A DNA stretch of 52,111 nt from Fidelibacterota bacterium (GTDB lineage Bacteria; Fidelibacterota; Marinisomatia; Marinisomatales; JAHJCW01). The DNA lies in assembly GCA_042577295.1 (NCBI GenBank), contig JBHPEE010000003.1:1-52111 (forward strand), in the 5' to 3' direction. Of this stretch, positions 99 through 37,735 are shown piece after piece (position 1 is the first letter of the stretch; each line of letters opens with the position of its first letter). A program made the translations under genes and the position numbers. Under the pieces are notes generated by a model. It had not been told where the DNA came from. It ran no database searches and saw only the letters and a program-made list of their open reading frames with translations.

Positions 99-238
99 AA
101 GTCAAATAATACCACATTATGGATACGTTTTGTATGGATATACTTCGTTTTTTCAACCTTTTTTCAAATTTCAACTTACTTTAAGGGGGTAGGGTGATTG
201 TGGTGAGATAAGCTCACACACAATCTCAAATAATTTTC
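99..238 (+). repeat. Cassette-delimiting repeat copy R1 (full, with dif-like core at 99-127)
   Basis: Contains AAGTCAAATAA-TACCACA-TTATGGATACG, CTTCGTTTTTTCAACC, AAATTTCAACTTACTTT, GGGGGTAGGG and GTGAGATAAGCTCACACACAATCTCAAA. Aligns by eye with six other copies. Confidence 0.9.
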
Positions 239-268
239 TTGCTAAAAATCTACTTCCTATCCTATACT
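239..268 (+). promoter_or_regulatory. Possible sigma-70 promoter pointing into the left array
   Basis: TTGCTA-N18-TATACT just downstream of R1. The AT-rich background weakens this call. Confidence 0.3.
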
Positions 269-381
269 TAACCATATGAGATATACGACTTATAGTGCTT
301 AACACCCTACTGAGAACTCCGGAAGATGTAACTCTCTAGTTAAATATACGGTGATGAATATCATTAAAAATTTCAAATAAA

Positions 382-1107
382 ATGATTATATCTCATAAAT
401 ATAAATTTATCTTTATAAAACCAATTAAGGTTGCTGGAACAAGTGTAGAAGTAGCGCTTGCCAAACATTGTGGCAACGAAGATATTGTTACTCCGATTAC
501 TAAATATTCAAAATTCAGTGATGAAGATGAGTATTTTCACTCACCAATAAATTATGAAGGATATTATAATCATATCCCACCGCGCAAGATAAAAGAAAAA
601 ATAGGAAATAAAATATGGGATAACTATATCAAATTTACTATTGTGAGAAATCCTTGGGATCTTATTGTCTCTCGTTATTATTGGAGGAGACCAATAAAAA
701 GGAATCTAATTACTCACCTTTATGAAATAAAAGAAAGTATCCTAAATCCAAAATTTTATATAGCTGCACTGAAAATCTGTGCACAATATCTAATGTTTTA
801 TAATTTCAAATATTATATAAATAATTCCTATGAAGATTTGACAAATACAAGGTTTTATTTTGATTCAAAAGAAAAACCAATATGTGATTTTTATATAAGA
901 TATGAATATCTTGAGCAGGATTATGAGAAGGTATGCAAACGGATAGGAATACCATACGAAAAACTGCCACTAACAAAAACAAAACACAGAAAAAATAAAT
1001 TAAATTATTCAAGGTTTTATAATAAAGATACACAAAATTTAATACACAAACTTTTCAAGAAAGATATTGATTTCTTTAAGTATAAGTTCGAGAATAATAC
1101 TAAATAG
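382..1107 (+). CDS. Sulfotransferase family 2 domain protein
   Basis: MIISHKYKFIFIKPIKVAGTS (5'-PSB loop), VRNPWDLIVS (3'-PB motif), RYE and C-terminal FKKDIDFFKY, all typical of Sulfotransfer_2. Confidence 0.85.
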   Translation: MIISHKYKFIFIKPIKVAGTSVEVALAKHCGNEDIVTPITKYSKFSDEDEYFHSPINYEGYYNHIPPRKIKEKIGNKIWDNYIKFTIVRNPWDLIVSRYYWRRPIKRNLITHLYEIKESILNPKFYIAALKICAQYLMFYNFKYYINNSYEDLTNTRFYFDSKEKPICDFYIRYEYLEQDYEKVCKRIGIPYEKLPLTKTKHRKNKLNYSRFYNKDTQNLIHKLFKKDIDFFKYKFENNTK

Positions 1108-1189
1108 TTTAAATGTAATAGTACTGTATGGGATTTAAAATTTGGTGAAAAATTATAACTATTAAATTTATAAAAAGGAAAAATGATAA

Positions 1190-1957
1190 TTGTCTCTTAA
1201 ATCTATTGTTAAATATCTTCCGGTAATTCTGAAATATCCACTTTCTATGACTAAAAAAATGAATTACATATTTATTATTAGCCACATGCGCAGCTATTCA
1301 ACTTTGTTAAGCCATGTTCTCGGGAGTAATAAAAATATTGATGGATATGGGGAGTTACATTATTCTTATTTAAATCGATTTGATAGTCTTAAGGCAAAAA
1401 TTCAAGTTATGTACGCTGTGGATAATAGCTTACAAGGTAATTTCATTTTGGATAAGCTATTACATAATGCTAATCAAATAGCTGAATCTTTTCTTCAAAA
1501 AAATACTGTAAAACTGATATTTTTACTAAGAAATCCTATAGACACATATAAAAGTCGAATAAATTTACTCCAGCGAATTAAAAAACGAAATATTGACCCA
1601 TTACAAATTCATAATTATTATATAAATAGATTGCCAATGTTAGTTCAGCAAGCAAAATCATTAGATACAAAAAAAATCTTTATTGAATCAGAGCAAATCA
1701 AAACTAATACCTCAGCCACGTTACAAAAACTAAATAATTTTTTAGAATTGGATGATAAATTAACGAACAATTATCAATTATTTAAATTTTCAGGTTATGG
1801 TAATTATGGAGACAGTACAGATAATATTAAGATAGGAGTAATCAGCAAAGGATCAAATCAGTACGATAATATTGTTTTACCGGATGAGATAATGAAGATT
1901 GCCCATATCGTATATAATGAAAGTAAATTGAAACTAATGCAACTTTGCAATAATTAA
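1190..1957 (+). CDS. Sulfotransferase family protein
   Basis: IFIISHMRSYSTLLSHVLG PAPS-binding loop and IFLLRNP motif. TTG start after AAGGA. Confidence 0.75.
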   Translation: MSLKSIVKYLPVILKYPLSMTKKMNYIFIISHMRSYSTLLSHVLGSNKNIDGYGELHYSYLNRFDSLKAKIQVMYAVDNSLQGNFILDKLLHNANQIAESFLQKNTVKLIFLLRNPIDTYKSRINLLQRIKKRNIDPLQIHNYYINRLPMLVQQAKSLDTKKIFIESEQIKTNTSATLQKLNNFLELDDKLTNNYQLFKFSGYGNYGDSTDNIKIGVISKGSNQYDNIVLPDEIMKIAHIVYNESKLKLMQLCNN

Positions 1958-1987
1958 ATGAGAAAATTTTAGTATAAAAAACGATGG

Positions 1988-2068
1988 TTTTACAAATTTC
2001 AACCTACTTTAGCGGGGTAGGGTAGTCGTGGTGAAGTAAGGACACACAAATTTTTAAAATATTTTTTT
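1988..2068 (+). repeat. Repeat copy R2 (5'-truncated, no core)
   Basis: AAATTTCAACCTACTTTAGCGGGGTAGGGTAGTCGTGGTGAAGTAAGGACACACAAA. Confidence 0.85.
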
Positions 2069-2113
2069 GAAAATTTTATGACCATATTACAAAATAGTAA
2101 TAAACAACTGTAA

Positions 2114-3118
2114 GTGTATAAATTATGCATGATAAGTTTTACAGCTCAATTTAAGGCTATGTGTACAAACTATAAACGGCATAAAAAAATTCATTACATG
2201 AATACGATAAAGGAATTAATAAAGCACTTCTACAATTACACAAAAGTTGGAAATATCCTTATATCTCCAGCTAAGTGGTTATATCATATATATTGTTATC
2301 ACATACTTTCTGAAAAGGAATATATTAAACAAATGTCTAAAAAAATTTTAGGCTATGAATTAAATTTAGATAATCCTAAAACATTCAACGAAAAAATACA
2401 ATGGCTCCAGCTTAATAACAGAATACCACTAAAAACATTTTGTGCTGATAAGTATTCGGTGAGGGATTATATTAAAGATAAAATTGGTGAACAGTATCTT
2501 ATTCCTTTAGTTTATCATACAGACAATCCTGCTAACATTATACCTGAAAATCTGCCGGGTTATCCGTTTATAATAAAATCCAATCATGGTTGCGGTGGAC
2601 ACATAATCGTGAAAGATAAATCTATAATCGACTGGAAAAGAGTACAGAAATACTTAAAGAAATCTTTAAAGAGCAATTTTTATTATAAAACCAAAGAGTG
2701 GCAGTATAAAGATATTGAACCGCGTGTTTTAGTGGAAAAACTATTATTAGATGAAAATTCCAATATTCCAGATGATTATAAATTCAATTGTTTTAACGGA
2801 AAAGTAGAAATTATTTCCGCTGATATGAATAGGCATATTGATTTGAAAAGAAATGTATATGATAAAGATTGGAATTTTATTGATTGTAGATTGCGGTTAG
2901 AAAATGGGGGTCAGGTTAAAAAACCATATATGTTGAATAAAATGAAATCATTGGCAGAAGCACTTGCACAAGATTTTAAATATGTAAGAGTCGATTTATA
3001 TAATATAGATAGTAAAATATATTTTGGAGAATTAACCTTTAGTCCCGCAGCGGGATTTCAACAATTCATTCCTGAAAAATGGGATAGAATACTTGGTAAT
3101 AAACTCGTACTCCACTAA
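2114..3118 (+). CDS. TupA-like ATP-grasp protein (polysaccharide amidoligase family)
   Basis: NPKTFNEKIQWL, ADKYSVRDYI, IKSNHGCG, EWQYKDIEPR, DYKFNCFNG, VRVDLY and FGELTFSP motifs. The true start may be a downstream ATG (e.g. 2198). Confidence 0.85.
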   Translation: MYKLCMISFTAQFKAMCTNYKRHKKIHYMNTIKELIKHFYNYTKVGNILISPAKWLYHIYCYHILSEKEYIKQMSKKILGYELNLDNPKTFNEKIQWLQLNNRIPLKTFCADKYSVRDYIKDKIGEQYLIPLVYHTDNPANIIPENLPGYPFIIKSNHGCGGHIIVKDKSIIDWKRVQKYLKKSLKSNFYYKTKEWQYKDIEPRVLVEKLLLDENSNIPDDYKFNCFNGKVEIISADMNRHIDLKRNVYDKDWNFIDCRLRLENGGQVKKPYMLNKMKSLAEALAQDFKYVRVDLYNIDSKIYFGELTFSPAAGFQQFIPEKWDRILGNKLVLH

Positions 3119-3132
3119 TAATCATATATCAA

Positions 3133-3225
3133 TTCTTTTTTCAACCATTTTCGAAATTTCAACTCACTTTAAAGGAGCAGGGAGTTGAGGTGAGATAAAC
3201 TCATACACAATCTCAAATAATTTTT
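3133..3225 (+). repeat. Repeat copy R3 (no core)
   Basis: TTTTTTCAACCATTTTCGAAATTTCAACTCACTTTAAAGGAGCAGGGAGTTGAGGTGAGATAAACTCATACACAATCTCAAATAATTTT. Confidence 0.9.
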
Positions 3226-3245
3226 AATATTCTTGGAAATGTAAC

Positions 3246-3620
3246 TTATTTAAGTAACACGTTCGATTCATCTTGAACATATACGGGTAAACTTTTTGTC
3301 ACTAACTCGTAGCCATCCCATACTTGGCAAGTAATTATACAATTCATACTTGCATTTGGCGTACTCCAATATATCGGGTTACCACGACCATTATTTACAA
3401 AAGCACCTGCTGTTGATAGCCAATTAAAATCTAATTTGTCGTTGTCTGCATCGTGTACATATGCTTTTACTCTAACAACTTGGTTGATTTTTGGATCAGA
3501 TGGCGTTAATACTATTTCATTAATTAGAGGTGGAGTGTTTTTTGAACTTGTTGGCATTATATCATTTGAACAAGATATAAAAAAGATAAATAATACAATA
3601 AGTTGAATATTTATTTTCAT
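3246..3620 (-). CDS. Small lipoprotein with Ig/PKD-like domain
   Basis: Lipobox FFISC; NTPPLI...DADNDKLDFNW...YWSTP...ITCQVWDG Ig-like pattern. Confidence 0.7.
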   Translation of the reverse strand: MKINIQLIVLFIFFISCSNDIMPTSSKNTPPLINEIVLTPSDPKINQVVRVKAYVHDADNDKLDFNWLSTAGAFVNNGRGNPIYWSTPNASMNCIITCQVWDGYELVTKSLPVYVQDESNVLLK

Positions 3621-3772
3621 CTGGAATAACTATAATCTAAAAAAATTAATCCATTATAGTCTATATTACAATAATATTTCCGTAATAAATCGGGACCATG
3701 AATGGCTTTATTGAAGCAATGATTAAAGGCCACGACAAATCTGAATTCCTATGGGTAAGAGGTAAGTGTGCT

Positions 3773-3888
3773 GAAGTATATCGATATCCGGTAAGTTATC
3801 CTTTTTACGATACTTATAACCTTCCCAATGGTTTTGGATAAATTTTAAATATGCTATGTAAATTTTACGTATAATATTTTAATTCCAT
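3773..3888 (-). pseudogene. Frameshifted 5' fragment duplicating the start of the GT92 gene (4903-5871)
   Basis: 3773-3875 matches 5757-5859 with 5 mismatches in 103 bp. The ATG at 3888 is out of frame by 1 nt with the homologous reading. Confidence 0.8.
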
Positions 3889-3894
3889 TGATAG

Positions 3895-4857
3895 CTATGC
3901 AGGATCTTTATCATCTAAGTATTTAAATAACTCGTATTTATTAAAAACTGCTTCAACCTGGGTGTCAAATTGAAAACCTACTATATTTATATTTGACAAT
4001 GATTTCTGTTGAGTACCTCTAATAGAATGGGGATGTATTGATATATTATTAACACGCATAGCTTTAACATCATTCATTATAGTCATTGCTTTGAACCATG
4101 CATCATCATGATTTGGGCAAAGATCTAAAAATACTTTGTCGTTGAATACCTCCGTATGCAAAGAGTTCGGTGGAAATAAGCACCCATGCCCTGTATATGG
4201 AAATATATTATTTGATGGCCCTTGAAAATTATCATAATGTGATAACCATTGTTCATAAGATAATAGTTTATTATTATTTTCTTTCCTGATAGAACGTGCC
4301 ATATGACAATGTACATAATCGGGATTTTTAAGATATGATTCGTAAAGCTCTTTAAGCCAATTTTTGGGAAAGAAAATATCATCGTCCGCGGAAACAACAA
4401 TTGCTTCAGGATACTCTTTTAAAGTATATATTATTTTTGTAAAAGAACGCAAGTCCTTACAATATTCAATTTTCAGGCCTCTCTTTTTTTGTTTAAGCAA
4501 GCGCCTTGTTGTACTTTTTCCAGACTTTAGTGCATCATCATTAAATATTTTCTCATTTAACCATAAAATTATATGATCTGGTTTTACTGTTTGCTGGAGC
4601 AATGATTCTATTCCAAGATAAACTCGATCAATTCTTTCTGGAATAGTAGTCAGGCTAACAATTAAAAGTGGAGAACGTTTTTTGTTGGTAACGCCAGAAG
4701 TTGTATTTATGATTGAACTAATATAAAAGTATAGTTCTATAAATGGATTGTTGATTATTCTATATTTTAATAATCGATATGTTTTTGTAAGCAGTGATCC
4801 TATTATTGGTATATTTTGTATTGTGTTTTTAATGATTACTAACAGGGTTATGATTTT
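3895..4857 (-). CDS. GT-A fold glycosyltransferase; reading frame is open to 4857, beyond the ORF-track start at 4602
   Basis: Upstream in-frame sequence encodes the family motif LIVSLTTIPERI...IESLLQQTVKPD. ADDD (DxD) and DDAWFK motifs are present. No ATG/GTG/TTG between 4857 and 4602. Confidence 0.75.
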   Translation of the reverse strand, partial: KIITLLVIIKNTIQNIPIIGSLLTKTYRLLKYRIINNPFIELYFYISSIINTTSGVTNKKRSPLLIVSLTTIPERIDRVYLGIESLLQQTVKPDHIILWLNEKIFNDDALKSGKSTTRRLLKQKKRGLKIEYCKDLRSFTKIIYTLKEYPEAIVVSADDDIFFPKNWLKELYESYLKNPDYVHCHMARSIRKENNNKLLSYEQWLSHYDNFQGPSNNIFPYTGHGCLFPPNSLHTEVFNDKVFLDLCPNHDDAWFKAMTIMNDVKAMRVNNISIHPHSIRGTQQKSLSNINIVGFQFDTQVEAVFNKYELFKYLDDKDPA

Positions 4858-4902
4858 TTATTTTTAATAAAAAAATATTTGTATTTATGTCTGATACCCA
4901 TA

Positions 4903-5871
4903 CTATTTATTTTGCTGTATAGTTTTGCTTAGTTTAGATAAAAATCTTAAAATATTTTTATTATCAACATGATTAAACTGACTATTTAATTCAGTATAAA
5001 GTTCTTTTGTCTTCTTCCCCGTTTGCCATCCTTTTTTAAATTTTTTTCCTTTATCAATAAATTCTTCTTTAGACTTAGTTATATAATGATTTAGTTGAAA
5101 TAAATCGTTTGCGATTTTTCCTTTAACAATAATTGGTTCACCCAACAATAATTTTGTGAATATATCTTTCAGTGAAAAACGATGGCTAAATCTATGTACA
5201 TTAGTATAAGCGAATCTTTTAGATAAATATCGGGTATTAGAAATGCTTTTTACTGTATGCCGTACCACATTATTACCTGATTTCGTGAAATTACTAATTA
5301 CCAAACCGGAAGGTTTTGTTAAATGCCCGCTATCGCCAAAATTAGTCCAATTCACTTCAATCCTAGCAAGTTTTGAATCGTCAAATTGTTTTAAAGCGTC
5401 GGTAATGGAATTATGTGATTTAGGGAATAAGAATTCATCAATATCTAACTGAATTATAAATTTAAAATGAGATCTAAACCTTATAATAAAATCTGCGTAT
5501 GCCATCTGTTGAATAGAAAGGGTATCGGCATTTCTTCCGTCTCTAAGTCCCGGTACATCGGGAAAAGGAATGTGAGTTACCAGACCTTTTTCAATATATG
5601 GTTTGAGCAGGACTTGTGAACTCTTTTCTAAGCCGTTATCATAGAGTATAAAATGATCTACTCCCATCATTTTATGAAATTCAATCCATTCTACAAGATA
5701 ATCATCCTCGCCACGAAAAATTGCAACCAATCCAAGAAAGTAAAACGAATTTGCAGGAAGTATATCGATATCCGGTAAGTTCGCCTTTTTACGATACTTA
5801 TAACCTTCCCAACGGTGTTGGATAAATTTTAAATATGCTATGTATATTTTACGTATAATCTTTTGGATCAT
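4903..5871 (-). CDS. Glycosyltransferase family 92 / GT2-like protein
   Basis: AIFRGEDDYLVEWIEFH..GVDHFILYDN, QQMAY, LDIDEFL, VKSI and LNHYITKSKEEF motifs. Confidence 0.85.
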   Translation of the reverse strand: MIQKIIRKIYIAYLKFIQHRWEGYKYRKKANLPDIDILPANSFYFLGLVAIFRGEDDYLVEWIEFHKMMGVDHFILYDNGLEKSSQVLLKPYIEKGLVTHIPFPDVPGLRDGRNADTLSIQQMAYADFIIRFRSHFKFIIQLDIDEFLFPKSHNSITDALKQFDDSKLARIEVNWTNFGDSGHLTKPSGLVISNFTKSGNNVVRHTVKSISNTRYLSKRFAYTNVHRFSHRFSLKDIFTKLLLGEPIIVKGKIANDLFQLNHYITKSKEEFIDKGKKFKKGWQTGKKTKELYTELNSQFNHVDNKNILRFLSKLSKTIQQNK

Positions 5872-5998
5872 AATATTACTTTAAAATATATTAAATAATT
5901 ATCTAAATATATTATAAATGTTACCGATTATTAATTAAATTCGGTTGTATAAAATTAACCATTCAATCCTATTAAAATTGTATTGATTTGAGGCTGAC

Positions 5999-18606: not shown

Positions 18607-20001
18607 ATGAATTATATTTTTGGTATTACTGCAAAGAAGTCAACACAATACAATAAATTTGTCTCAGGTTCCCAAAAAAAGTTATCTGGAAGTTCGAATA
18701 ATGTAAAGTTAGCTTATTCTCTCAGTTCGATTTTATCTTATATGACCATAGATAATTATGATGCTATTTTTGTGGATTGGACGATCTTGTCGAAAAATTA
18801 TAAAACTTTTGAGAAACAATTACAAAAGATAAATAAATTTATACCATTAATTATAATTACTAATGATTCTGAAATAGATAGCGAATTATTTGTTGGCTGC
18901 CCATCACTTTTTCGAGTAATCAATCAATCAACCGCTGTAAAAATAATTCCTGAAATTCTAAATGATATAATATTGTATAATCAATTATTAGAAGAATTAA
19001 CCCCTTATGCTAAGTCATTTATTATACCGAATGGATTTAAATCCATAATTGGCAATTCCCGTGTTATGCTAAGCGTTTATAAACAATTAGCAAAGGTTTC
19101 TCAAACTAATTTTACTACTTTAATACTGGGTGAAAGTGGCTGTGGAAAAGAAGTAATTGCCAATACAATTCATGATTTAAGTAATAGAAAAAGTCAACAA
19201 CTTGTGTCTCTCAATTGTGCGGCGATCCCATCTAATTTACAAGAGAGTGAATTATTCGGCTTTGAAAAGGGTGCCTTCACTGATGCAAATAAGGAAAAAG
19301 ATGGAAAATTTGAGTTAGCAAATCATGGTACACTTTTTTTCGATGAAATTGGAGATATGGCACTGGATCTTCAATCAAAATTACTTAGAGTATTAGAAAG
19401 CAATACATATATGCGTTTGGGGGGAATTAAAGAGAAAAAAGTTGATGCACGATATATTGCGGCGACGCATCGCAATTTAAATGATATGGTGAAAAACGGC
19501 AGTTTTAGATCTGATTTATTTTATAGACTAAATGTTATCCCAATCCACCTGCCATTACTTCAAGAGCGGGGAAATGACATAGTATTATTATGCCTAAATA
19601 TTATTGGAAAAATATTAGCTCAAGGATCATTATCTTTACATTCAATTTCTTGGGATTTAATCGAAGAATTGAAAAAGTTACCCCTGATGGGGAATATTCG
19701 GGAACTTGAAAATATGCTGACGAGAATAATATTCAATTCCACAGGTCCAGTTCTGGATAAAGAAAGTTTAAGTGAATTCGATATTGCCAGTGACCATATA
19801 GAAAAACCAGTATTGGATTCTGAAGATGTTAATTATGAAATTATGCCATTGAAAAAAATCGAGAAGAATGTAATTAGTAAAGCACTAATTATATATCATG
19901 GGAATATATCTAATGTTGCTAAAATATTAGAGATTTCTAGATCAGCATTATATAGGAAAATAAATAAATACGATTTAGGGAAAAAAGACTTAACGTCTTA
20001 A
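18607..20001 (+). CDS. Sigma-54-dependent activator (PilR/NtrC-like) with divergent receiver-like N-terminus
   Basis: GESGCGKE, ESELFG, GAFTDA, FFDEIG, DLFYRLNV, GNIRELEN and a Fis-type HTH. Confidence 0.88.
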   Translation: MNYIFGITAKKSTQYNKFVSGSQKKLSGSSNNVKLAYSLSSILSYMTIDNYDAIFVDWTILSKNYKTFEKQLQKINKFIPLIIITNDSEIDSELFVGCPSLFRVINQSTAVKIIPEILNDIILYNQLLEELTPYAKSFIIPNGFKSIIGNSRVMLSVYKQLAKVSQTNFTTLILGESGCGKEVIANTIHDLSNRKSQQLVSLNCAAIPSNLQESELFGFEKGAFTDANKEKDGKFELANHGTLFFDEIGDMALDLQSKLLRVLESNTYMRLGGIKEKKVDARYIAATHRNLNDMVKNGSFRSDLFYRLNVIPIHLPLLQERGNDIVLLCLNIIGKILAQGSLSLHSISWDLIEELKKLPLMGNIRELENMLTRIIFNSTGPVLDKESLSEFDIASDHIEKPVLDSEDVNYEIMPLKKIEKNVISKALIIYHGNISNVAKILEISRSALYRKINKYDLGKKDLTS

Positions 20002-25355: not shown

Positions 25356-28300
25356 TTGATGAAATTTATTAGAAATCTAGCCGCAGGATTACTACTAATC
25401 ATAATTACTGATGTACTATTTGCGGGTGCAGTCGATACTAGCTGGGTACAGAAGATGTTTACTAGAGAAGAGGGAGATATTTCCATCATTCCGGATTTCG
25501 ATGATGCTTATGGTGTATCATTCCGTGATATTAATAATGACGGATTACCTGATCTATATGTAACCCGTTTCCGTGAATTAAATCGATTGTTAATAAATCG
25601 TGGTCAAGGTTTATCTTTTAAAGATCAAACAATCCGAACCGGTTTAGGGGGAAATTTAACACCCCAGCGATTACAAAATTTAGAATTAGGGGCCGATATA
25701 ATTGATTTTAATAATGATGGTTTACCGGATGTATTAACTGTCGGTTGGGGAGTAACAACCACCCTTTATAAACAACAAAAAATATTGGATTTTAAAGATT
25801 ATACTGAAGACATCGGTTTGAAACACCCCATAAGTGGAAATGCGGGAATCTGGGCTGATATTGATATTGACGGTGATTTAGATCTGTTTATTACCGATGA
25901 ACATGGTAAAAATCATTTATATGTTCAATCAAAACCGGAAGTTTTTACTGAATTAGCGGATGGATTTGGGCTGGATGGCCATCAGATCAGCCAAGGAGCT
26001 GCTTTTGGTGATCTGAACGCCGATGGTTACCCGGATTTATATATTTGTAATTGGTTTGAACCGGACATGTTATTTATTAATAAAAGCGGTGAATATTTTG
26101 AAAAAGCACCAATATTAGTTACCCATTTAACTGATTCATTAAATTCAAACGGTGTTACCTTTGGAGATTTGGACAATGACGGTGATTTAGATATTTTGGT
26201 AACCGACCGCAATAATTCCAGCAAAATATATCGTAACGATTTTGATTCTACAAATAATACTCTCAGATTTACCGATGTAACCGATAATTCATTGCTAATT
26301 AATAATTATCCATCCTATTCCGGCAATATTGCCGATTTTAATAATGATGGTTTACTTGATATATTTTTTACAAATATTGGGCCAAACTTGCTATTTTTAA
26401 ATCAAGGTAGTATAAAATTTCAGTTAGCTTACACCGAGCAGATTATAGATTACGAATACCCTGATGCAAATTACAGCACCGGTGCAGCAGTCGCAGATTT
26501 AGAAAACGATGGTGATTTGGATTTATTTGTATCTAATAAAGATACTTATAGCCAATTATATGTAAATCCATTACAGAATAGTAATTATCTTAGATTTGAA
26601 TTTGAAGGAATTTATAGTAACCGAGACGCAATAGGTACAAAAGTATGGTTGTATGAGGAAGCGGATAGTGCAAGTAGTAATCGATTAATAGGTTTCAGAG
26701 AAATTTCAAGCAGCGCCGGTTATTTATCGGCCAGTGAATTAATCGCTCATTTTGGAGTGAGATCAAATATAACATATACACTTAGAGCACTTTTTCCTTC
26801 AGGAAGAGAAATCATCTTAAATAATATAATTCCCGATCAGACCATCAAGATTGATGAAGTGTCCGGAATATTAAAGGTTTCAAAACGTACTCAGCAAACT
26901 ATTGGCACTATTGTTCGGCAGCCATCATTTTTAATTAATTTAGGATTAATACTCTTTTTAATTATTTTAATTGGTCTTTTTATCGCTATCGCCATTAAAC
27001 GCTATTTGTGGAAGTCAAAACAGACCGCAATATTTTTAGTAATAATTCTATCAATTTTATATATTTTCTGGTCCGGAATGCGTGATCGTCCCATGTCAGA
27101 AACACTTGGAGTACAAATCCTCGTTATATTGACAATCTTGATATTTACAATCGGCTTTATGGAAAAGTTACGGCAAGTGAATAAGAAACGATTTGAATAT
27201 CGCCATGTTTTACATCGATTTTCGGAAGACCTTATTTTTATCAGAAATAATACAAAATTATATGATCAGTTGGTCACAATGATTCAGAGTTCTCTTGATG
27301 TAAAGTTTACAGGCGTTGTTGAGATAAAAAATGAAAAAACCGGTAAACAATATTTTTCAATACCTAATAATATTAAGTGGAATACAATTACTTTTTCGGA
27401 TGAACAGATAAGAGTTCTTTTAGCAAATAATAGTATTAATCAAACAATAATTACTGAACAGTACCAACAATTTCCTCCGAATATAGATCTTATTATTCCA
27501 CTAAAAAGACAGGCAAAACTTTATGCAATGCTAATTTTAATTCGTAATGAAAACACTAAATTCTACCAACAAGAAGATATTACATTATTGACGACAGTTG
27601 CCAATCAAGCTTCGCTTGCAATAGAGAATAATTTATATATAGAAGAAACGAAAGCATTAACCAAATCATTGACTGAATCACAAGTGCAAAAACGCTATGT
27701 GAATGAATTAGAAGAGAAGAATCGAAATTTGGAGGAATTATTTATCGAATTGAGAGAAACTCAATCGCAATTAATTCAAAGTGAAAAGATGTCAAGTTTG
27801 GGTCAATTAGTGGCCGGCGTTGCCCACGAATTGAACAATCCTATCGGTTATTTATATGCCAATATGAAGGAGTTACAAAAATATATAAATTTATTAAAAC
27901 AAGGCGAAGACGGAAAAATCGGAACCTCAGTAGAATATATTAAAGAGGATATTGATCAATTGATTTTGGAAAGTGTGGAAGGCAGCGAACGCGTTAAGAC
28001 AATCGTGGAAAACCTCCGTAAGTTCTCTCGCTTGGATGAAGCAGAGTTCAAATATGCAGATATTCACGAAGGATTGGATTCTACTATAATGTTAATTGAA
28101 AAGGAATTGGGCAAAAACATTAAATTGCATAAAGATTATTCTGATATGCCGTCAATTAGTTGTATGCCGGGGCATCTTAATCAAGTGTTTTTAAATATGT
28201 TGCTCAATGCAATACAAGCTATTGAAGGTAATGGGAATATTTGGATTTCAACAGCAATTAAGAATGATAAAGTTGTTATTAAATTCAAAGATGATGGAAA

Positions 28301-28499
28301 GGGAATTCCCAAAGAAAATATTGTTAAAATATTTGAACCATTTTTCACAACAAAACCGGTTGGAATGGGAACGGGCTTAGGATTAAGTATCAGTTATGGC
28401 ATTATTCAAGAACACGGTGGTGATATGAAAGTAAAAAGTAAAAAGAAAACCGGCACGACATTTACGATTTCAATTCCATATAACCCATTACAAAAATAA
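25356..28499 (+). CDS. Membrane sensor histidine kinase with FG-GAP propeller and ASPIC/UnbV extracytoplasmic domain, about 3 TMs and a GAF-like domain
   Basis: Signal peptide; seven DxxxDGxxDL repeats; NRDAIGTKV...GYLS....AHFG; H-box GVAHELNNP; N-box LNQVFLNMLLNA; DDGKG; FFTTKPVGMGTGLGL. Confidence 0.88.
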   Translation: MMKFIRNLAAGLLLIIITDVLFAGAVDTSWVQKMFTREEGDISIIPDFDDAYGVSFRDINNDGLPDLYVTRFRELNRLLINRGQGLSFKDQTIRTGLGGNLTPQRLQNLELGADIIDFNNDGLPDVLTVGWGVTTTLYKQQKILDFKDYTEDIGLKHPISGNAGIWADIDIDGDLDLFITDEHGKNHLYVQSKPEVFTELADGFGLDGHQISQGAAFGDLNADGYPDLYICNWFEPDMLFINKSGEYFEKAPILVTHLTDSLNSNGVTFGDLDNDGDLDILVTDRNNSSKIYRNDFDSTNNTLRFTDVTDNSLLINNYPSYSGNIADFNNDGLLDIFFTNIGPNLLFLNQGSIKFQLAYTEQIIDYEYPDANYSTGAAVADLENDGDLDLFVSNKDTYSQLYVNPLQNSNYLRFEFEGIYSNRDAIGTKVWLYEEADSASSNRLIGFREISSSAGYLSASELIAHFGVRSNITYTLRALFPSGREIILNNIIPDQTIKIDEVSGILKVSKRTQQTIGTIVRQPSFLINLGLILFLIILIGLFIAIAIKRYLWKSKQTAIFLVIILSILYIFWSGMRDRPMSETLGVQILVILTILIFTIGFMEKLRQVNKKRFEYRHVLHRFSEDLIFIRNNTKLYDQLVTMIQSSLDVKFTGVVEIKNEKTGKQYFSIPNNIKWNTITFSDEQIRVLLANNSINQTIITEQYQQFPPNIDLIIPLKRQAKLYAMLILIRNENTKFYQQEDITLLTTVANQASLAIENNLYIEETKALTKSLTESQVQKRYVNELEEKNRNLEELFIELRETQSQLIQSEKMSSLGQLVAGVAHELNNPIGYLYANMKELQKYINLLKQGEDGKIGTSVEYIKEDIDQLILESVEGSERVKTIVENLRKFSRLDEAEFKYADIHEGLDSTIMLIEKELGKNIKLHKDYSDMPSISCMPGHLNQVFLNMLLNAIQAIEGNGNIWISTAIKNDKVVIKFKDDGKGIPKENIVKIFEPFFTTKPVGMGTGLGLSISYGIIQEHGGDMKVKSKKKTGTTFTISIPYNPLQK

Positions 28500-28502
28500 T
28501 AT

Positions 28503-29933
28503 ATGAATCCAACAATTTTAATCGTTGATGATGAACAGCATGTCCTGAACTCCATTAATCGCACTTTACGGCATGATTATAATGTCATTTTATCTTTAGA
28601 CGGAAAATCAGCATTACAAGTATTGCGTGAACAAGAGGTATCGGCTATTTTAGCCGATCAGCGTATGCCGGGACTTACCGGTTCGGATTTCTTTCGGGAA
28701 TCGATCAAAATTCAGCCTGATACCACACGCGTTTTAATTACCGGTTATTCAGATATTGAAGCCGTAGTACAAGCTGTCAATGATGGACAAATATATTTTT
28801 ATATCGAAAAACCATGGGAACCGGATGATTTGAAATTGATAATAAAAAGAGCAGTTGAACGTTATCAATTGATCAGAGATAATAAAGATCTGATACATAG
28901 GTTGGAGATCGCCAATCAGCAATTGAGCAACGAAAATATTGTGCTAAAAAAGGATGTTGAGCAAAAGTACAATTTTTCTAATATAATTGGCGAAAGTAAA
29001 GCAATGCAGGATGTGTATGATTTGATGAGAAAAGTCATACCGACTGATACAACAGTTTATATTTCTGGCGAAACAGGAACCGGGAAAGAATTAATTGCGC
29101 GGGCTATTCATTTTAACGGACCGCGTAAAGATAAAATATTCGCTGCTCAGAATTGTGCCGCCTTACCTGATACTTTACTGGAGAGCGCCTTATTTGGACA
29201 TACAAAAGGCGCTTTTACTGATGCTACATCAGATAAAAAGGGATTATTTGAGGTAGCTGATGGCGGAACGGTATTCTTAGATGAATTATCAGACACGTCA
29301 CCGGCCTTGCAACAGCGATTATTGCGAGTAATCCAAGAAGGGGAATTTCAGCCGGTTGGTTCGAATAAAACGATTAAAGTCAATGTGAGGATTCTTTCTG
29401 CAACTAATAGAGATTTACTAAATCTAGTTCAACAGGGAAAATTTCGAGAGGATCTATATTATAGAATTAATGTATTCCCAATACATCTTCCTCCATTAAG
29501 AGATCGAATGGATGACATATCTTTACTTGCAAATTATTTTCTGAATAAATATATGATCCAAGCCGGCAAAACTATTAACGGCTTCTCAGAAGATGTATTA
29601 AAATATTTATTATCCATTAAATATCCGGGGAATGTTCGTGAATTGGAGAATATGATCCAACGCGCAGTCATTTTAGCCGGAAATGACCAAACCTTATCCT
29701 TAAATCATTTGCAAACGGAATGGGAAGGGAGTCAAGCAACGATAAAGACAATCACTAATTTACAATCAGATATTCAATTTTCATCATTACCAAGACTTGT
29801 GGAAGAACTTGAGATCAAATATATAACACAGACTCTTAAATCAAATCAAGGGAACATTAGTAAAACTGCCATCGAATTAGGGTTGAGTAGAGCAGGTCTA
29901 TACAAAAAACTAAAACGCTATAATATTGGTTAA
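28503..29933 (+). CDS. Sigma-54-dependent response regulator (NtrC family)
   Basis: IVDDE, ADQRMPG, KPW, GETGTGKE, GAFTDA, YPGNVRELEN and a Fis HTH; 3 bp after the kinase. Confidence 0.92.
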   Translation: MNPTILIVDDEQHVLNSINRTLRHDYNVILSLDGKSALQVLREQEVSAILADQRMPGLTGSDFFRESIKIQPDTTRVLITGYSDIEAVVQAVNDGQIYFYIEKPWEPDDLKLIIKRAVERYQLIRDNKDLIHRLEIANQQLSNENIVLKKDVEQKYNFSNIIGESKAMQDVYDLMRKVIPTDTTVYISGETGTGKELIARAIHFNGPRKDKIFAAQNCAALPDTLLESALFGHTKGAFTDATSDKKGLFEVADGGTVFLDELSDTSPALQQRLLRVIQEGEFQPVGSNKTIKVNVRILSATNRDLLNLVQQGKFREDLYYRINVFPIHLPPLRDRMDDISLLANYFLNKYMIQAGKTINGFSEDVLKYLLSIKYPGNVRELENMIQRAVILAGNDQTLSLNHLQTEWEGSQATIKTITNLQSDIQFSSLPRLVEELEIKYITQTLKSNQGNISKTAIELGLSRAGLYKKLKRYNIG

Positions 29934-31545: not shown

Positions 31546-31547
31546 AA

Positions 31548-32983: not shown

Positions 32984-33068
32984 ATTTGTAAATATTATTC
33001 CTGCGGTAATTTAATGAAAATGTTTCGTTTTAAGGATCTATGACGCAAACAACAAGTCTGGTAAGCTA

Positions 33069-33092
33069 AAAACAACCCATAAGGGTTGTTTT
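33069..33092 (-). terminator. Terminator for the minus-strand island genes
   Basis: AAAACAACCC-ataa-GGGTTGTTTT. Confidence 0.65.
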
Positions 33093-33162
33093 CTTTAACT
33101 ACTTACGTAATTGCAGGATGATACGAATAATTATTATAATATATCTGGTAAGCATTAGTATT

Positions 33163-33901: not shown

Positions 33902-34152
33902 ATGTACTCCTTTAAACAAAACCCCTAACAATATGCTAGGGGTTATTCACAGTACATATACAGTAAAATCAATGAGATTTGCAGTATAACCAGCTCGTTA
34001 GTTCATGGGTTTTTCATTAAAGGTGTCCTTCTAAAGTCTTCATAGTGTATTGGTAGTAGCTAGTACAATAGGTATTTATTGCTTTTTTTATATCGATTGT
34101 TTTGCATAAATGTTTTAAGATATATTTATCCTTAATAATAAGGGAGTTTGAT

Positions 34153-35238
34153 ATGAATGTTACTCATCGTATTATTTTAGTTGTATTTATTATCCTATTT
34201 CTTTTTACCTGTAAAAAAACTCCAACCGATTCAGGTCCCGTAGCAGTAACATTCCCTGATGCTAATTTTGAAACACTGATAAGGGAAGCCTTAGACCAAC
34301 CTACAGGAGATATATTAAATACTGATTTACTAACTATTACAGAATTGGATGGCAATGATAGGGAAATAGTCGATATTAGCGGTATTGAACATTGCTTGTA
34401 TTTAGAGAATCTCTATTTACAGAAAAATTCTATATCTGATATAAGTGCGCTAAGTGGCTTAATCAAACTCAAAAAATTATATCTTTATAACAATTTTGTT
34501 ATTATAGATATTAACGTTTTATCAAATCTAATAAATTTAGAACAACTATTTTTATCTAATAATCTAATAACTGACATAACACCAATTACTGGGTTGAATA
34601 ATCTTATTACACTATTAATAGGTGGAAATCCATTAGACGATATTGGTGCTATTTCAAATCTTACACAATTGCAAGCCCTTTACCTGGGGAATTGTCATAT
34701 AGGTAATATTAATGCTTTATCAAATCTTACGAATTTAAAATTATTGGAACTTAATGACACACAAATAACAGATATAGCTATTCTCTCAGGGTTAACTGAC
34801 TTGGAAACATTATGGGTGTGTAATAATAATCTTTCCGAGATACATACACTTGCTAGTTTAACAAAGCTCAAATTTTTACACTTAGCTAATACAAACACTG
34901 TCAGTATTAGTGATTTAACAGGATTAATCAATTTAACTTCATTATTTATTTTTAATAATCAAATAGTTGATATAGGTCCACTATCAGAATTGGTAAATTT
35001 AACAAATGTAAATATGTGGGGTAACCAAATTGTAAATATTTCTCCATTATCTGGATTAACTAACCTTGAATCAGTAAATATAAATCAAAATAGTGTTACA
35101 GACATATCACCATTAGTAGACAATTCAGGGATTGACGATGGAGATGAAATATGGCTTGAGAATAACCCTCTTAGTGATACGTCGATAAATACTTATATAT
35201 CACAATTAGAAGCTAGGGGAGTTACAGTATATTGGTAA
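34153..35238 (+). CDS. Internalin-like leucine-rich-repeat lipoprotein
   Basis: GGGAG RBS; lipobox LFTC; FPDANFE cap; about 12 22-aa LxxLxLxxNxIxDIxxL repeats. Confidence 0.88.
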   Translation: MNVTHRIILVVFIILFLFTCKKTPTDSGPVAVTFPDANFETLIREALDQPTGDILNTDLLTITELDGNDREIVDISGIEHCLYLENLYLQKNSISDISALSGLIKLKKLYLYNNFVIIDINVLSNLINLEQLFLSNNLITDITPITGLNNLITLLIGGNPLDDIGAISNLTQLQALYLGNCHIGNINALSNLTNLKLLELNDTQITDIAILSGLTDLETLWVCNNNLSEIHTLASLTKLKFLHLANTNTVSISDLTGLINLTSLFIFNNQIVDIGPLSELVNLTNVNMWGNQIVNISPLSGLTNLESVNINQNSVTDISPLVDNSGIDDGDEIWLENNPLSDTSINTYISQLEARGVTVYW

Positions 35239-35306
35239 ATAATTAAGTTGAATGGAAAGAATTTGAGTCAATCATTGCAACTTTAATTGCTGTAACATGA
35301 ATGCAT

Positions 35307-35486
35307 TTATCCAGGACCAGAGTAGAATTCTCCTTTCGAACTACCCCATATGTTTTGTGCGTAAACCTCTGTAAAAATTTCTTCAGGTGTTTTGTTTAGA
35401 TTCAACCTTTGCATCACAAACTGTTTGAAAAGTATGTAGCGATCAAGCAGAAAGATTGGGACTAATTTTTTGATGTGTGATTTCAT
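35307..35486 (-). pseudogene. Truncated 5' fragment resembling a class I SAM-methyltransferase N-terminus (59 aa)
   Basis: Manual translation MKSHIKK...TPEEIFTEVYAQNIWGSSKGEFYSGPG*. The F..Y..N.WG...SGPG pattern normally precedes an MTase core that is missing here. Confidence 0.55.
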
Positions 35487-35601
35487 TACATTAAAACTTT
35501 TTTTGCAGTATAATTAATAAATGATCTGCAAATCTCATTAAATAATTTATACAAATATACAGTTAGTTTTTGCTCTATATTAATACAGTTGTAAAATTTC
35601 T

Positions 35602-35731
35602 AAAAAATTTTATTGGATTATGCCTGAGGTTGTCTCACCACCAACACCGTACCGCCATAAAGTAGGTTGAAATTTGGAAAATGGTTGAAAAAACGAAGTG
35701 TGTCCCTAATTAGGTATTATTGGACTTTGTT
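35602..35731 (-). repeat. Repeat copy R4 (full, core 35699-35727)
   Basis: + strand AAAGTAGGTTGAAATTT...GTTGAAAAAACGAAG TGTGTCCCTAA TTAGGTA TTATTGGACTT. Confidence 0.9.
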
Positions 35732-35901
35732 TTGGATAGTTTTTTCTCTTTGAACAAACCCCAACGTTTAATTTGTGGTGATTTTGGCGTTTCATTAGAA
35801 TCATCCGTTTCTGCTGGCATTATAATAGCAAAACCTGACGAGAAGACGGTGAATGGGTCTCTAAAATTATTAACGTCAATATTTGTTTTCTTTTTTTTCA
35901 T
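35710..35901 (-). CDS. Small basic hypothetical protein (63 aa) whose stop lies inside the R4 core
   Basis: AGAGG RBS before ATG 35901; fills the R5-R4 interval. Confidence 0.4.
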   Translation of the reverse strand: MKKKKTNIDVNNFRDPFTVFSSGFAIIMPAETDDSNETPKSPQIKRWGLFKEKKLSKTKSNNT

Positions 35902-35990
35902 AACAAAACCTCTAACTATGTTCAACTTAGACAATATTTGTATTATGATGGTTGTCATTGGCATATCAATAGCGTTTGATAAATTTCTAG

Positions 35991-36084
35991 AAAAAAATAT
36001 TTTTAGATTGTGTGTGAGTCTATCTCACCTCAAATACGTACCCCTTTAAAGTAAGTTGAAATTTGGGGAAATGTTGAAAAACGA
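35991..36084 (-). repeat. Repeat copy R5 (no core)
   Basis: AGATTGTGTGTGAGTCTATCTCACC...TACCCCTTTAAAGTAAGTTGAAATTTGG..GTTGAAAAACGA. Confidence 0.9.
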
Positions 36085-36103
36085 TTATTCCCCAATTTGA
36101 GTT

Positions 36104-36691
36104 TTATTGTAAGTCGAATTCAATTAACTCAAGTGTTTCTTTATCGAATCCAGTATTAATTATTCTTATAAAACCAATATCTTCTGCAAGATATAAATCA
36201 TCCATATCAAAATCTGAATTAAAATATCGTACACAATTAAATATTCCCGCCTCAACTGTTTCAGTAGAATTGGCTAAACGTTCAATCCTAACTGTATCTA
36301 GCTCTCCCTCTTGGTTGATATAATTAATATTTGAATCTTCTCCAACTTTAAGATTTCCGTCAATAACTGGTACTCTGCCTTGAGCTTTATTAAAAAATGG
36401 ATACCAATATATAATATTATTTTCTATTCCAAAACCGATATCATCATCATCTCCACTATAAACTTGTATAGCATTAATCAATATTTGTTGTGTCAATCTT
36501 ATTTCCCAAATTTCTCCATCTAGATTTTTATATTGCCATTTATTGCCAACCTTCATCGGGAAAAAATCATTAGCTATTATAGATTGATTTGTTATTTCTT
36601 GTTTTTCTGAATCAGTAAGTTTTTTGCTGCATTGAACAAGTAGAAATAACCCAAATGAGAAGTAGATAATAGAAATGAATATAGTTTTCAT
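36104..36691 (-). CDS. Hypothetical lipoprotein (cassette gene)
   Basis: AAGGAGG RBS; lipobox LVQC; FFPMKVGNKWQY and TVEAGIFNC...LAEDIGFI motifs of a common beta-rich family. Confidence 0.75.
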   Translation of the reverse strand: MKTIFISIIYFSFGLFLLVQCSKKLTDSEKQEITNQSIIANDFFPMKVGNKWQYKNLDGEIWEIRLTQQILINAIQVYSGDDDDIGFGIENNIIYWYPFFNKAQGRVPVIDGNLKVGEDSNINYINQEGELDTVRIERLANSTETVEAGIFNCVRYFNSDFDMDDLYLAEDIGFIRIINTGFDKETLELIEFDLQ

Positions 36692-36799
36692 CTAACCTCC
36701 TTGAATAAAAAAAACGAATAACTATAGTAAAACTACTTCTAAATCAGAATTTATTTCAACTTCAATAAATATCTACAGTATATGTATTAATAAATTCTG

Positions 36800-36926
36800 A
36801 AATTTTATTGAAGATTGTGTGTGAACTTATCTAACCCCAACACTCTACCCCCATCTAAGTAAGTTGAAATTTCGAAAATGATTGAAAAAACGAAGTGTGT
36901 CCCTAATTAGGGTTTATTTGACTTTG
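36800..36926 (-). repeat. Repeat copy R6 (full, core 36896-36924)
   Basis: AGATTGTGTGTGAACTTATCTAACC...AAGTAAGTTGAAATTT...CGAAG TGTGTCCCTAA TTAGGGT TTATTTGACTT. Confidence 0.9.
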
Positions 36927-37520
36927 TTAGAATTTTTGAATTTCGAAATTTTCTACCCAAATCAACTCACAAGAATGGCTACCATTATCAGCACGACTTA
37001 AAGAACTGACCCAACGCCAACCACCTTTCGCATCAATCCTTATTAAATTACCACTAAATTCGACTATATCGCCTTTGTGTGTACGGTTTATCATCGATCT
37101 AACTGATTGATTCGCAGGTACGAGATGCATATTTCCACTGTGGGTTTCAATCTCTCTCCTAGGAATAGGAAATTTATCTGTCCGCCATCTGTACCAACGA
37201 TTTGATTGCGAGATATCGATAAGGTCCAACACCTCTTCATCAGACATCCTTCCCCAGCCTAAAGCCAAGTCTACGGGTGATATATTTGATTCTCGCCCCG
37301 AACGGTAATTCTTCTTGGAAAGCACTTTAGCTTTAATATAAAAATTCGCTAGAGGGGTAATAGTATATTCTTTAAATGGAAAGCTTTGAGGGGAGACTAT
37401 TTTTACTTGCCTTGGAGGGGAGGGCGCTAATACACCAGGGCCAAACCTAACAGCGCCATTTCTTAGGAAAACAAACCACAAAACAGTTAGGGCTAATAAA
37501 AAATATATTATTTTCTTCAT
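36927..37520 (-). CDS. Conserved-looking hypothetical exported protein (cassette gene)
   Basis: N-terminal hydrophobic helix; SPVDLALGWGRMSD, SQSNRWY, HSGNMHLVPA, WVSSLSR.D and CELIWV. Visibly more GC-rich than its neighbours. Confidence 0.75.
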   Translation of the reverse strand: MKKIIYFLLALTVLWFVFLRNGAVRFGPGVLAPSPPRQVKIVSPQSFPFKEYTITPLANFYIKAKVLSKKNYRSGRESNISPVDLALGWGRMSDEEVLDLIDISQSNRWYRWRTDKFPIPRREIETHSGNMHLVPANQSVRSMINRTHKGDIVEFSGNLIRIDAKGGWRWVSSLSRADNGSHSCELIWVENFEIQKF

Positions 37521-37610
37521 TTATGTTATATTATTCTAAATAATGCCTTTTAAAATGATTTCAAACTTACATAGAAGACGGTTATTATAACTTATGTGAA
37601 AAATAATCTG

Positions 37611-37735
37611 GAAAATTGTTTGAGATTGTGTAAGTCCTTATCTCACTACAATCACCCTACCCACTTAAAGTAGGTTGAAATTTCAAAAATGGTTGAAAAA
37701 ACGAAGTGTGTCCCTAATTAGGTATTATTTGACTT
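37611..37735 (-). repeat. Repeat copy R7 (full, core 37707-37735), tRNA-proximal
   Basis: TTTGAGATTGTGTAAG..TATCTCAC...CCCTACCC..AAAGTAGGTTGAAATTT...CGAAG TGTGTCCCTAA TTAGGTA TTATTTGACTT. Confidence 0.9.

Follow-up and report, generated by a model that had tools for sequence, protein, structure and literature searches.

Cargo elements that gather at tRNA genes have been described as tycheposons in Prochlorococcus. In the available part of that account (10.1101/2020.12.28.424599), they are integrated at several tRNA genes by tyrosine recombinases. New integrations displace those already present outward, the islands are strewn with partial tRNAs and degraded remnants, and the islands are constant, the elements in them rare. 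A locus of comparable build is found in a bacterium of the phylum Fidelibacterota, on a contig of 52,111 nucleotides (JBHPEE010000003.1 of assembly GCA_042577295.1), the whole of which was analysed and is called the window here. Seven diverged copies of one intergenic repeat, R1 to R7, bound small groups of accessory genes in two arrays of this window. With moderate confidence, we regard the repeat as the junction module, of the left attachment site (attL) or P' arm kind, of integrative islets that target tRNA genes, multiplied by serial insertion and altered by recombination and decay. The islands are ordinary in kind. What is new is a reusable, modular junction at the edges of small units.

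The window is the entire contig C3 of genome G000, an assembly of 1.85 Mb in 125 contigs that is 78% complete. It was compared with seven other genomes of the genus (congeners, among them G001-G005), two further genomes of the family and 31 from other families of the order. L-numbers such as L101 denote extracted loci, many from metagenome contigs. The repeat profile used with nhmmer was built from the seven window copies. The metagenome set holds 67 contigs recovered with the core pattern and 103 repeat matches; 112 unique copies, pooled from all sources, were aligned for column conservation, and 117 anchored copies were scored for a G-rich 12-mer. Transfer RNAs were called with ARAGORN, and Pfam, TIGR02249 and Rfam models were used with their cut-offs.

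Anatomy and Distribution of the Repeat

Read 5' to 3', the unit starts from a tRNA 3' end, or a displaced tRNA 3' half, and continues with five modules, A-B-C-D-E. Module A is a terminator-like hairpin. Module B consists of one to four tandem 11-bp units of the type RGTCAAAYAAA, termed iterons here, and module C of one or two GGAYAC-type repeats with a spacing of 15 bp. Module D reads T6-CAAC..TTTT..AATTTCAACYTACTT; its AATTTCAACYTACTT is more strongly conserved than any other block, and at least 90% of the 112 unique copies have the consensus base there. Module E is made up of a G-rich block, GG(G/C)GGTAGGGTG, an imperfect GTGAG/CTCAC hairpin and then TCAAATAATTTT. The 3' half, D-E, is about 115 nt long and is also found alone between genes; its G-rich 12-mer is close to the ops (operon polarity suppressor) site of RfaH.

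The profile finds 19 copies in G000, 12 of them beyond the window on nine other contigs. Weaker copies were detected by BLAST in five of the nine other family genomes (four of the seven in the genus and one of the two further ones) and in none of the 31 genomes from other families of the order. A search of contigs from other metagenome-assembled genomes (MAGs) gave four loci with the repeat, and the core pattern had no match in 2.9 million viral contigs. At the Rfam gathering threshold only the tRNA passes, so that no known RNA family covers the repeat; in E-value mode the stretch 35500-37800 gave five matches, all with E >= 5.6.

No consensus structure was obtained by RNAalifold from 18 copies, of which two had single folds with z below -3. 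A small RNA or riboswitch identity of D-E was dropped because D-E has no consensus fold. The small open reading frame (ORF) on the reverse strand of the GGAYAC repeats and the very short leader ORFs in E differ from copy to copy and were likewise dismissed.

Variants of both halves occur. Some metagenome copies scored as 5'-truncated carry a second arm type, in which three TTTCGCAYC-like repeats and GTGGATACC..GGGATACC with an 11-bp period are attached to the same D-E (L072, L082, L084, L089, L090, L103, L121, L126, L128 and L098, and in G000 at C44:15050-15100). An alternative right half, beginning GAACGWTAG..ATTAG, replaces E after the core motif in G001:C61 and in G002:C108, after tRNA-Gly(CCC), and also at L119:13945-14069; it is common to a tRNA-Gly locus and a contig resembling a phage attachment site (attP) of tRNA-Pro type.

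The Seven Copies of the Window

The alignment of R1-R7 has 36 invariant columns and 65% mean column identity. All seven are re-detected by their own profile (nhmmer E = 7.4e-39 to 2.1e-21), which finds no eighth copy in the 52-kb window and therefore none in its pilus or housekeeping parts. From one AAATTTCAAC motif to the next there are 1828 and 1160 bp in the left array and 389, 808 and 811 bp in the right. The original prediction, made from the letters of the window, had given these copies with their positions and motifs, the same periods and the same absence from the pilus and housekeeping regions; all of it was confirmed, the periods exactly.

The left array lies on the forward strand. 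R1 (94..245; E=1.3e-37, model 5-141) is a medium form with about one iteron, two GGATAY repeats and D-E, and contains an exact ops-like 12-mer at 185-196. R2 (1982..2076; E=2.1e-21, model 50-144) is a minimal form that starts just 5' of AAATTTCAAC and has the end of D plus E only. R3 (3101..3234; E=4e-27, model 14-143) is a short D-E form. The right array is on the reverse strand. R7 (37601..37742; E=7.4e-39), the copy proximal to the tRNA, has all of A-B-C-D-E and is attL-like. R6 (36790..36931; E=4.8e-35) is a medium form with an exact ops-like 12-mer at 36841-36852, and R5 (35986..36110; E=3.2e-27) is a short D-E form with a degenerate G-rich block (four mismatches to GGNGGTAGNNTG). R4 (35593..35733; E=8.2e-38), the outermost copy of this array, is a medium form with one iteron, one GGACAC and D-E, and shows the TCCAAT variant of the iteron at both ends. 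The medium forms R1, R6 and R4 all begin at the last iteron.

Stop codons had been predicted to fall near or inside the next copy. In four pairs of stop and copy start they abut or overlap (1957/1982, 3118/3101, 36927/36931 and 36104/36110): R2 starts 25 nt past the stop of the second of two sulfotransferase genes, R3 overlaps the stop of a TupA-like gene and has a convergent gene on its other side, and the first bases of R6 overlap the stop of cargo gene A. The right array does start right after the terminator of tRNA-Arg(TCT) (37792..37866, reverse strand; ARAGORN; Rfam 71.4 bits), R7 beginning 50 bp beyond the tRNA. The terminator-like hairpin between the two (37760..37785, reverse strand) aligns with hairpins after other repeat-bearing tRNAs and tRNA fragments, to which it is homologous, and as read from the sequence it shows a compensatory change, T-A vs C-G, against the copy on contig C26. 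This hairpin is itself part of the repeated unit.

Association with tRNA Genes

Four G000 copies are found, co-oriented, 50-95 bp downstream of tRNA genes called by ARAGORN: tRNA-Arg(TCT), tRNA-Met(CAT), tRNA-His/Pro(TGG) and tRNA-Gly(CCC). A further three come after a tRNA 3' half. The tRNAs that precede copies in congeners and other MAGs are tRNA-Gly(CCC), tRNA-Pro(TGG) and tRNA-Ser(CGA). The 5' module is present in 41 of the 103 metagenome copies; upstream of these an intact tRNA was detected in 9, a tRNA fragment in 16 and neither in 16, with the tRNAs of G000 as the only probes. The 62 copies scored as 5'-truncated include none after a tRNA and one after a fragment. At least eight tRNAs are used in all: Arg, Pro(TGG), Pro(GGG), Gly, Met, Val, Ser and Leu.

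Three G000 contigs hold islets with a tRNA at one end and a direct repeat of the 3' portion of that tRNA at the other; the displaced repeats are 44 nt of Pro-GGG at 100% identity (C44), 24 nt of Gly-CCC (C90) and 50 nt of Val-CAC (C56). The distal repeat is also present at tRNA-Val in G004 and at tRNA-Pro in G003. G000 has at least 25 tRNA 3' fragments, 13 of them from tRNA-Val(CAC) and mostly covering nt 29-78, and congeners have 3-16 matches to a tRNA-fragment junction of this kind.

The 13 tRNA-Val(CAC) 3' copies of G000 lie 1.6-7.4 kb apart on C24, C30, C47, C56, C76, C34, C8 and C2, with blocks of secreted-protein and lipoprotein genes between them. G004 has 16 matches to the tRNA-Val-type junction, some of them in the middle of a 311-kb contig and far from the tRNA-Val gene. 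G000 also has another intergenic repeat family, unrelated to the first, which is about 60 nt long and present in at least 15 copies; it has two or three CCAAAAACG-type direct repeats and a hairpin-like CCAAAAACGGTGGGTTTTG at its end. It occurs on C2, C11, C19, C24, C30, C34, C35 and C76 (e.g., C30:11541 and C24:7739), often just inside islets with tRNA-Val fragments.

Integrases and the attP-like Layout

In three metagenome loci, L101, L119 and L120, the repeat stands beside an integrase gene. The gene ends 60-200 nt before a row made up of a GGAYAC pair, a tRNA 3' half (Pro, Pro, and Arg- or Ser-like, respectively), the hairpin, three iterons, a second GGAYAC pair and D(-E). Modules A-B-C-D-E thus lie across the tRNA core from the integrase gene, with GGAYAC pairs flanking the core on both sides. 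This order is, as far as sequence can tell, that of a lambda-type attP with P arm, core and P' arm. An intact element of the same integrase family is found in G003:C15 at tRNA-Ala(GGC), with GGATAC pairs, the predicted arm-type repeats, at both ends, and there too the integrase gene adjoins the site.

A non-Xer integrase from G000 contig C119, used as a tblastn query, matched 8 of the 67 metagenome contigs. The repeat-linked integrase proteins pass PF00589; all of them score below the curated cut-offs for XerC, XerD and integron integrases. Against the integron-integrase model TIGR02249 (cut-off 265 bits) the best of nine proteins, among them fragments of the C29, C6 and C87 recombinases and the full C119 integrase, scored 119.8 bits; the repeat-linked integrases scored 23-93 bits. 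No serine recombinase was found in G000. A co-occurring recombinase, which the original prediction had proposed to look for, is present beside the repeat in L101, L119 and L120 and beside none of the 19 copies in G000.

The 2493-bp contig C119 carries its 352-aa integrase gene between two ORFs that resemble DNA methyltransferases by eye, and two GGATACC motifs are found within 110 nt 5' of the start codon. An integrase match at G004:C15:682-698 kb was set aside because the G+C content of that stretch is unlike the rest of the genome. The stretch (G004:C15:682000-698000, L066) is very rich in G+C, both of its strands carry long ORFs that overlap, and it is probably a mis-joined or contaminating piece of the assembly.

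Islands and Empty Sites in Relatives

Both window arrays are species-specific islands beside tRNA genes. The right island, 2.55 kb at 35239..37791 (reverse strand), is absent from G002, where a leucine-rich repeat (LRR) gene stops 9 nt from tRNA-Arg, and in G004 its place at tRNA-Arg is taken by a single unrelated gene; neither site has a repeat. Its cargo genes A and B occur in G000 only, each in 0 of the nine other family genomes. The left island (1..5900, no strand assigned) has no counterpart in G003 or G004. Synteny with these two starts at about 5927, and with G002 at 4904.

In G004 the FKBP gene and pilus region are followed by a two-gene response-regulator pair and then by tRNA-Pro(TGG), with no island, and the neighbouring gene ends 57 bp from the tRNA. 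The same tRNA in G003 carries a 2.7-kb insert in the order repeat, gene, repeat, which ends in a degenerate tRNA-Pro 3' fragment (18/23 bases, counted by eye) and a second native hairpin. The site is also occupied in G000, where tRNA-Pro(TGG) stands with a full copy at the end of contig C65. Because of the synteny and this contig end, the first 5.9 kb of the window would most likely be the distal part of the tRNA-Pro(TGG) island on C65.

Flanks change at the repeat. For example, at tRNA-Gly(CCC) G000 and three other genomes share 75-77% identity from the tRNA to D, across the hairpin, the iterons and GGAYAC; identity stops right after AATTTCAACYTACTT, nothing is shared downstream, and cargo differs by species. 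Three metagenome contigs are 93-96% identical from AATTTCAACYTACTT on and unrelated upstream of D. Judged from such alignments, the repeat is a place of flank exchange. A single fixed crossover at the core motif, suggested by these alignments, was not borne out by the ends of high-scoring segment pairs at >=90% identity, which mark about six independent breakpoints at 0-3, 15-18, 39, 54, 78 and 96-100 nt from the motif. With breakpoints so scattered, homologous recombination between copies, or deletion, fits as well.

Two mechanisms had been offered in the original prediction. Serial insertion of a small gene-carrying unit is supported by the species-specific arrays, the empty sites in congeners, the cargo genes A and B unique to G000 and the differing content at the same tRNA. 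Integron-like capture with a new kind of site fared worse: the long form is most likely the arm of a tRNA-borne attachment site of a tyrosine integrase, and no IntI, attC fold or fixed breakpoint was found. The content between copies does vary among relatives, and gene order is not conserved, but the breakpoints do not fall at one position. Single copies do exist elsewhere in the genome; they stand beside tRNAs or accessory genes, not in core intergenic regions.

Probable Serial Insertion at tRNA Genes

The units were most likely inserted by a phage-type integrase, to judge from the arrangement of the predicted sites. A tyrosine integrase of 320-357 aa would act in trans on integrase-less units. 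It would recombine a circular unit, at the core that derives from a tRNA, with a tRNA gene of the chromosome or with an older tRNA fragment, the GGAYAC repeats serving as putative arm-type sites. Every insertion would leave the row tRNA, A-B-C-D-E, cargo. Repeated insertion at tRNA-Arg(TCT) and tRNA-Pro(TGG) would have started the two arrays, which recombination between the copies of about 140 bp and deletion would then have shaped, and the medium and short copies inside them would be remnants or recombinants. The cargo-facing D-E half may double as an expression leader of the cargo for the UpxY-type antiterminator of the genus.

Several observations weigh against this explanation. No recombinase gene was found near any of the 19 G000 copies or in the window, and none among 20 scanned proteins neighbouring the G000 copies. 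Four tyrosine recombinases were found in G000, of which two are Xer-like and two are on contigs away from the copies. One integrase is not expected to use five or more different tRNAs, and the GGAYAC half-site and its spacing differ between elements. The 16 of 41 long metagenome copies that gave no tRNA or fragment upstream belong here as well, with the limit that the probes came from G000. In the right island a displaced tRNA-Arg fragment was not detected (local score 16-20, vs a shuffle mean of 16 and maximum of 24), and simple tandem integration would have given the internal copies R6, R5 and R4 a P arm, a tRNA fragment and a hairpin, none of which they have. Such integration does not explain D-E alone at single-gene spacing without tRNA fragments. 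The 5' edge of the short D-E copies is sharp, in nine cases 0-8 nt past a stop codon, and these copies look more like a defined unit than the product of random decay. Parts of the window are contained in 24 public sediment, marine or seep runs, the best with 0.37 of the sampled words; in 4 of these 24, unitigs of 150-480 nt at depth 2-5 contained no joint in the island and no excision circle.

D-E as a Possible Expression Leader

It is possible, though on balance doubtful, that D-E is mainly an expression module, a promoter or leader in which the 12-mer, exposed on the non-template strand, would recruit the single NusG paralog of the UpxY/RfaH type in the genus and thereby promote read-through of cargo gained by horizontal transfer, in the manner of JUMPStart/ops. 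Such a role would be compatible with the integrase explanation of the 5' half, and as a second function of D-E it is a serious candidate. The 12-mer matches GGNGGTAGNNTG exactly in 24 of the 117 scored copies and with at most one mismatch in 60. Seven exact matches are found in G000, three in repeat copies and the other four inside ORFs. In the part of PMC5995543 drawn on here, recruitment of RfaH needs G4, G5, A7 and G8 of ops, and the C3:G8 stem is important. The repeat 12-mer keeps all four bases and the T11-G12 pause dinucleotide, but its position 3 is G, not C, in most copies, and the C3:G8 stem is therefore not predicted. The hairpin of D-E comes after the 12-mer, whereas it precedes it in the Bacteroides opsX examples given in the available part of PMC11685472. 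The likeness to ops was moreover spotted post hoc.

A second NusG-family gene is present in all five congeners searched, and the G003 paralog scores 122.9 bits against the UpxY-family model (cut-off 100). Only the housekeeping NusG was found in the 78%-complete assembly of G000, from which the neighbours of the paralog, ddl and cysS, are likewise absent. The G003 paralog (about 168 aa; G003:C12:48634-49140, L134:4634-5140) sits between ORFs that resemble ddl and cysS by eye, and the equivalent place is occupied in G001, G002, G004 and G005. It is single-copy in each genome, in contrast to the many locus-specific copies in Bacteroides.

Among the cargo products are glycan-modifying enzymes and secreted proteins, of the sort that such factors typically control, and six of the seven window copies precede a co-oriented ORF. 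In the metagenome copies (n=82; crude ORF calls) the next ORF is co-oriented in 52 and opposed in 30, and the upstream ORF in 57 and 25. The downstream count is too loose for a plain promoter. Copies that bear the motif have a next ORF that is co-oriented in 32 cases and opposed in 15, and motif-poor copies in 25 and 22, which with these crude calls is not a significant difference (Fisher p=0.2). Inspection by eye for promoter motifs of the sigma-70, sigma-54, extracytoplasmic function (ECF) and Bacteroidota types gave no convincing match in D or the rest of D-E.

Less Likely Readings: Cassettes, Mobile Repeats and Replication Origins

An integron-like cassette system would make the long copy an attI-like landing pad and the short D-E a cassette-borne attC-like site, with a recombinase that exchanges single genes through crossover at or near AATTTCAACYTACTT. 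We hold this unlikely. The pattern that recalls it is one long copy at a tRNA followed by short copies between single genes, as in the window and in L098, where one long and five short copies are found within 7.5 kb. The conservation of AATTTCAACYTACTT, the loss of tRNA-Gly homology between species right after it, the three contigs that are alike from it onward and the nine upstream stops that abut D point the same way. The breakpoints are few and scattered, however, and are fitted equally well by homologous recombination or deletion. The copies have no conserved single-strand fold and no inverted core sites; on reading the alignments, no inverted RYYYAAC/GTTRRRY pair of attC type was found in them. 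No recombinase adjoins the arrays, the best repeat-linked one (93 bits) is far below the integron-integrase cut-off, and in relatives the genes between copies are in either orientation. For the D-E half, capture is conceivable.

D-E might also serve two purposes, as a secondary attachment site by which the island integrase, or a partner of it, captures and shuffles single genes behind a landing pad at a tRNA, in the way of attI/attC, and as an ops-bearing leader that brings them into the regulon of the single UpxY/RfaH-type antiterminator of the genus. This combination seems decidedly unlikely. If true, genes would be captured by a system that also controls their expression and is not related to integrons.

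Very unlikely, in our opinion, is a selfish repeat of the miniature inverted-repeat transposable element (MITE) or repetitive extragenic palindrome (REP) type that favours sites after tRNA terminators and between accessory genes. The repeat is short, intergenic, multi-copy and confined to one bacterial family, and G000 holds at least one other unrelated intergenic repeat family. Its body is flanked by 9-bp direct repeats TCAAATAAT, and R4 has TCCAATAA at both ends, co-varying. This 9-mer is identical to the iteron itself, though, and so need not be a target-site duplication. The two ends as read from the alignment have no terminal inverted repeats, and none of the copies was seen to have a transposase nearby. 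A free MITE would not be expected to keep so strict an order and orientation with respect to tRNA cores and integrase genes, and at tRNA-Gly and tRNA-Pro the copy is kept in place across species.

The replication origin of an episomal satellite, with Rep iterons beside DnaA-box-like TGTGGATAC/TGTGGATAA repeats and an A+T-rich stretch, is highly improbable: there are tandem 11-bp iterons, an A+T-rich D and TGTGGATA(A/C) pairs one base off the DnaA-box consensus, but rep, primase and helicase genes were not seen next to any copy, the search of viral contigs gave nothing, and the GGAYAC pairs that flank the tRNA core by the integrase gene are better explained as arm-type sites.

Cargo and Neighbouring Genes of the Window

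The cargo of the left island includes two sulfotransferase-family genes on the forward strand, at 382-1107 (PF03567, E=1.2e-7) and 1190-1957 (PF13469, E=2.4e-7), and a TupA-like ATP-grasp gene at 2114..3118 (forward strand; PF14305, E=3.9e-56). In the right island, on the reverse strand, cargo gene A (36927..37520, 197 aa) has a signal-peptide-like N-terminus and cargo gene B (36104..36691, 195 aa) a lipoprotein-like one; neither belongs to a Pfam family. Between R5 and R4 lies an 84-aa ORF (35710..35964, reverse strand) with no family match and of uncertain coding status. A short ORF of about 60 aa after R4 (35300-35480, reverse strand) may be a truncated cargo gene; its end presumably resembles the N-terminal part of S-adenosylmethionine-dependent methyltransferases.

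The gene facing tRNA-Arg across the island, an LRR lipoprotein gene at 34102-35238, is highly variable among species (orthologues in L024 and L025). It encodes 378 aa here and 542 aa with an internal duplication in G002, and is interrupted by a stop in G004. Farther away, at 25356-29933, the type IV pilus operon is directly followed by genes for a 1047-aa histidine kinase that contains FG-GAP/ASPIC repeats and for a sigma-54-type response regulator. The pilus operon has its own sigma-54 activator (18607-20001).

Significance and Comparison with Known Systems

The flexible genome of this uncultured sediment lineage is one in which tRNA genes collect many tiny units that hold one to three genes, mostly lack an integrase and each bear a conserved, modular junction. 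Island growth of the tycheposon type is thereby extended from marine cyanobacteria to a quite different bacterium. The new features are an arm module common to elements that target at least eight tRNAs and a cargo-facing block with an ops-like site, which could tie acquired genes to the regulon of a NusG paralog. In practice, the repeat profile is a marker of island boundaries for annotation in this bacterial family.

Integrons are resembled in that mostly co-oriented units of one or two genes are bounded by a family repeat of about 100-140 bp, stop codons lie at the edge of the next repeat, and one special site heads the array. Unlike integrons, these arrays have no IntI, and neither an imperfect palindrome of the attC type nor a conserved fold was found; each gene moves with the repeat in front of it, and a tRNA gene heads the array.

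With ops/JUMPStart and opsX, as covered in the portions of PMC5995543 and PMC11685472 available to us, D-E shares a sense-strand G-rich 12-mer, near GGCGGTAGnnTG, that lies 5' of polysaccharide and secreted-protein genes, and the genus has an UpxY-family NusG paralog as in the opsX/UpxY system (PMC11685472). D-E differs from ops/JUMPStart, again within what that portion of PMC5995543 covers, in that position 3 is usually G and the small non-template hairpin is not predicted. Its copies are many, each before a single gene rather than a long operon, and about a third of them face a convergent gene.

Islands of the lambda/P4 type enter tRNA genes at the 3' part, which then recurs as a direct repeat at the far end, as on C44, C90 and C56 and at tRNA-Pro in G003, and they have short repeated motifs on both sides of the attP core, by the integrase gene, as in L101, L119 and L120. 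The P' arm of lambda has three tandem arm sites, which the three iterons of the repeat, on the integrase-distal arm, resemble. In contrast to islands of this type, most of the units described here are integrase-less and hold only one to three genes, and at least eight different tRNAs are used. The arm holds two types of repeat (iterons and GGAYAC), two arm types share the same D-E, and this extra, highly conserved D-E in the arm exists also on its own.

The closest picture is that of the tycheposons, as they appear in the available part of their description: integration at several tRNAs, outward displacement, partial tRNAs, and rare elements in constant islands. The likeness is one of description, and the lineage and the integrase family are different. 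What sets the present islands apart from the tycheposons so described is a conserved arm module that is reiterated down to single-gene spacing, often without a tRNA fragment.

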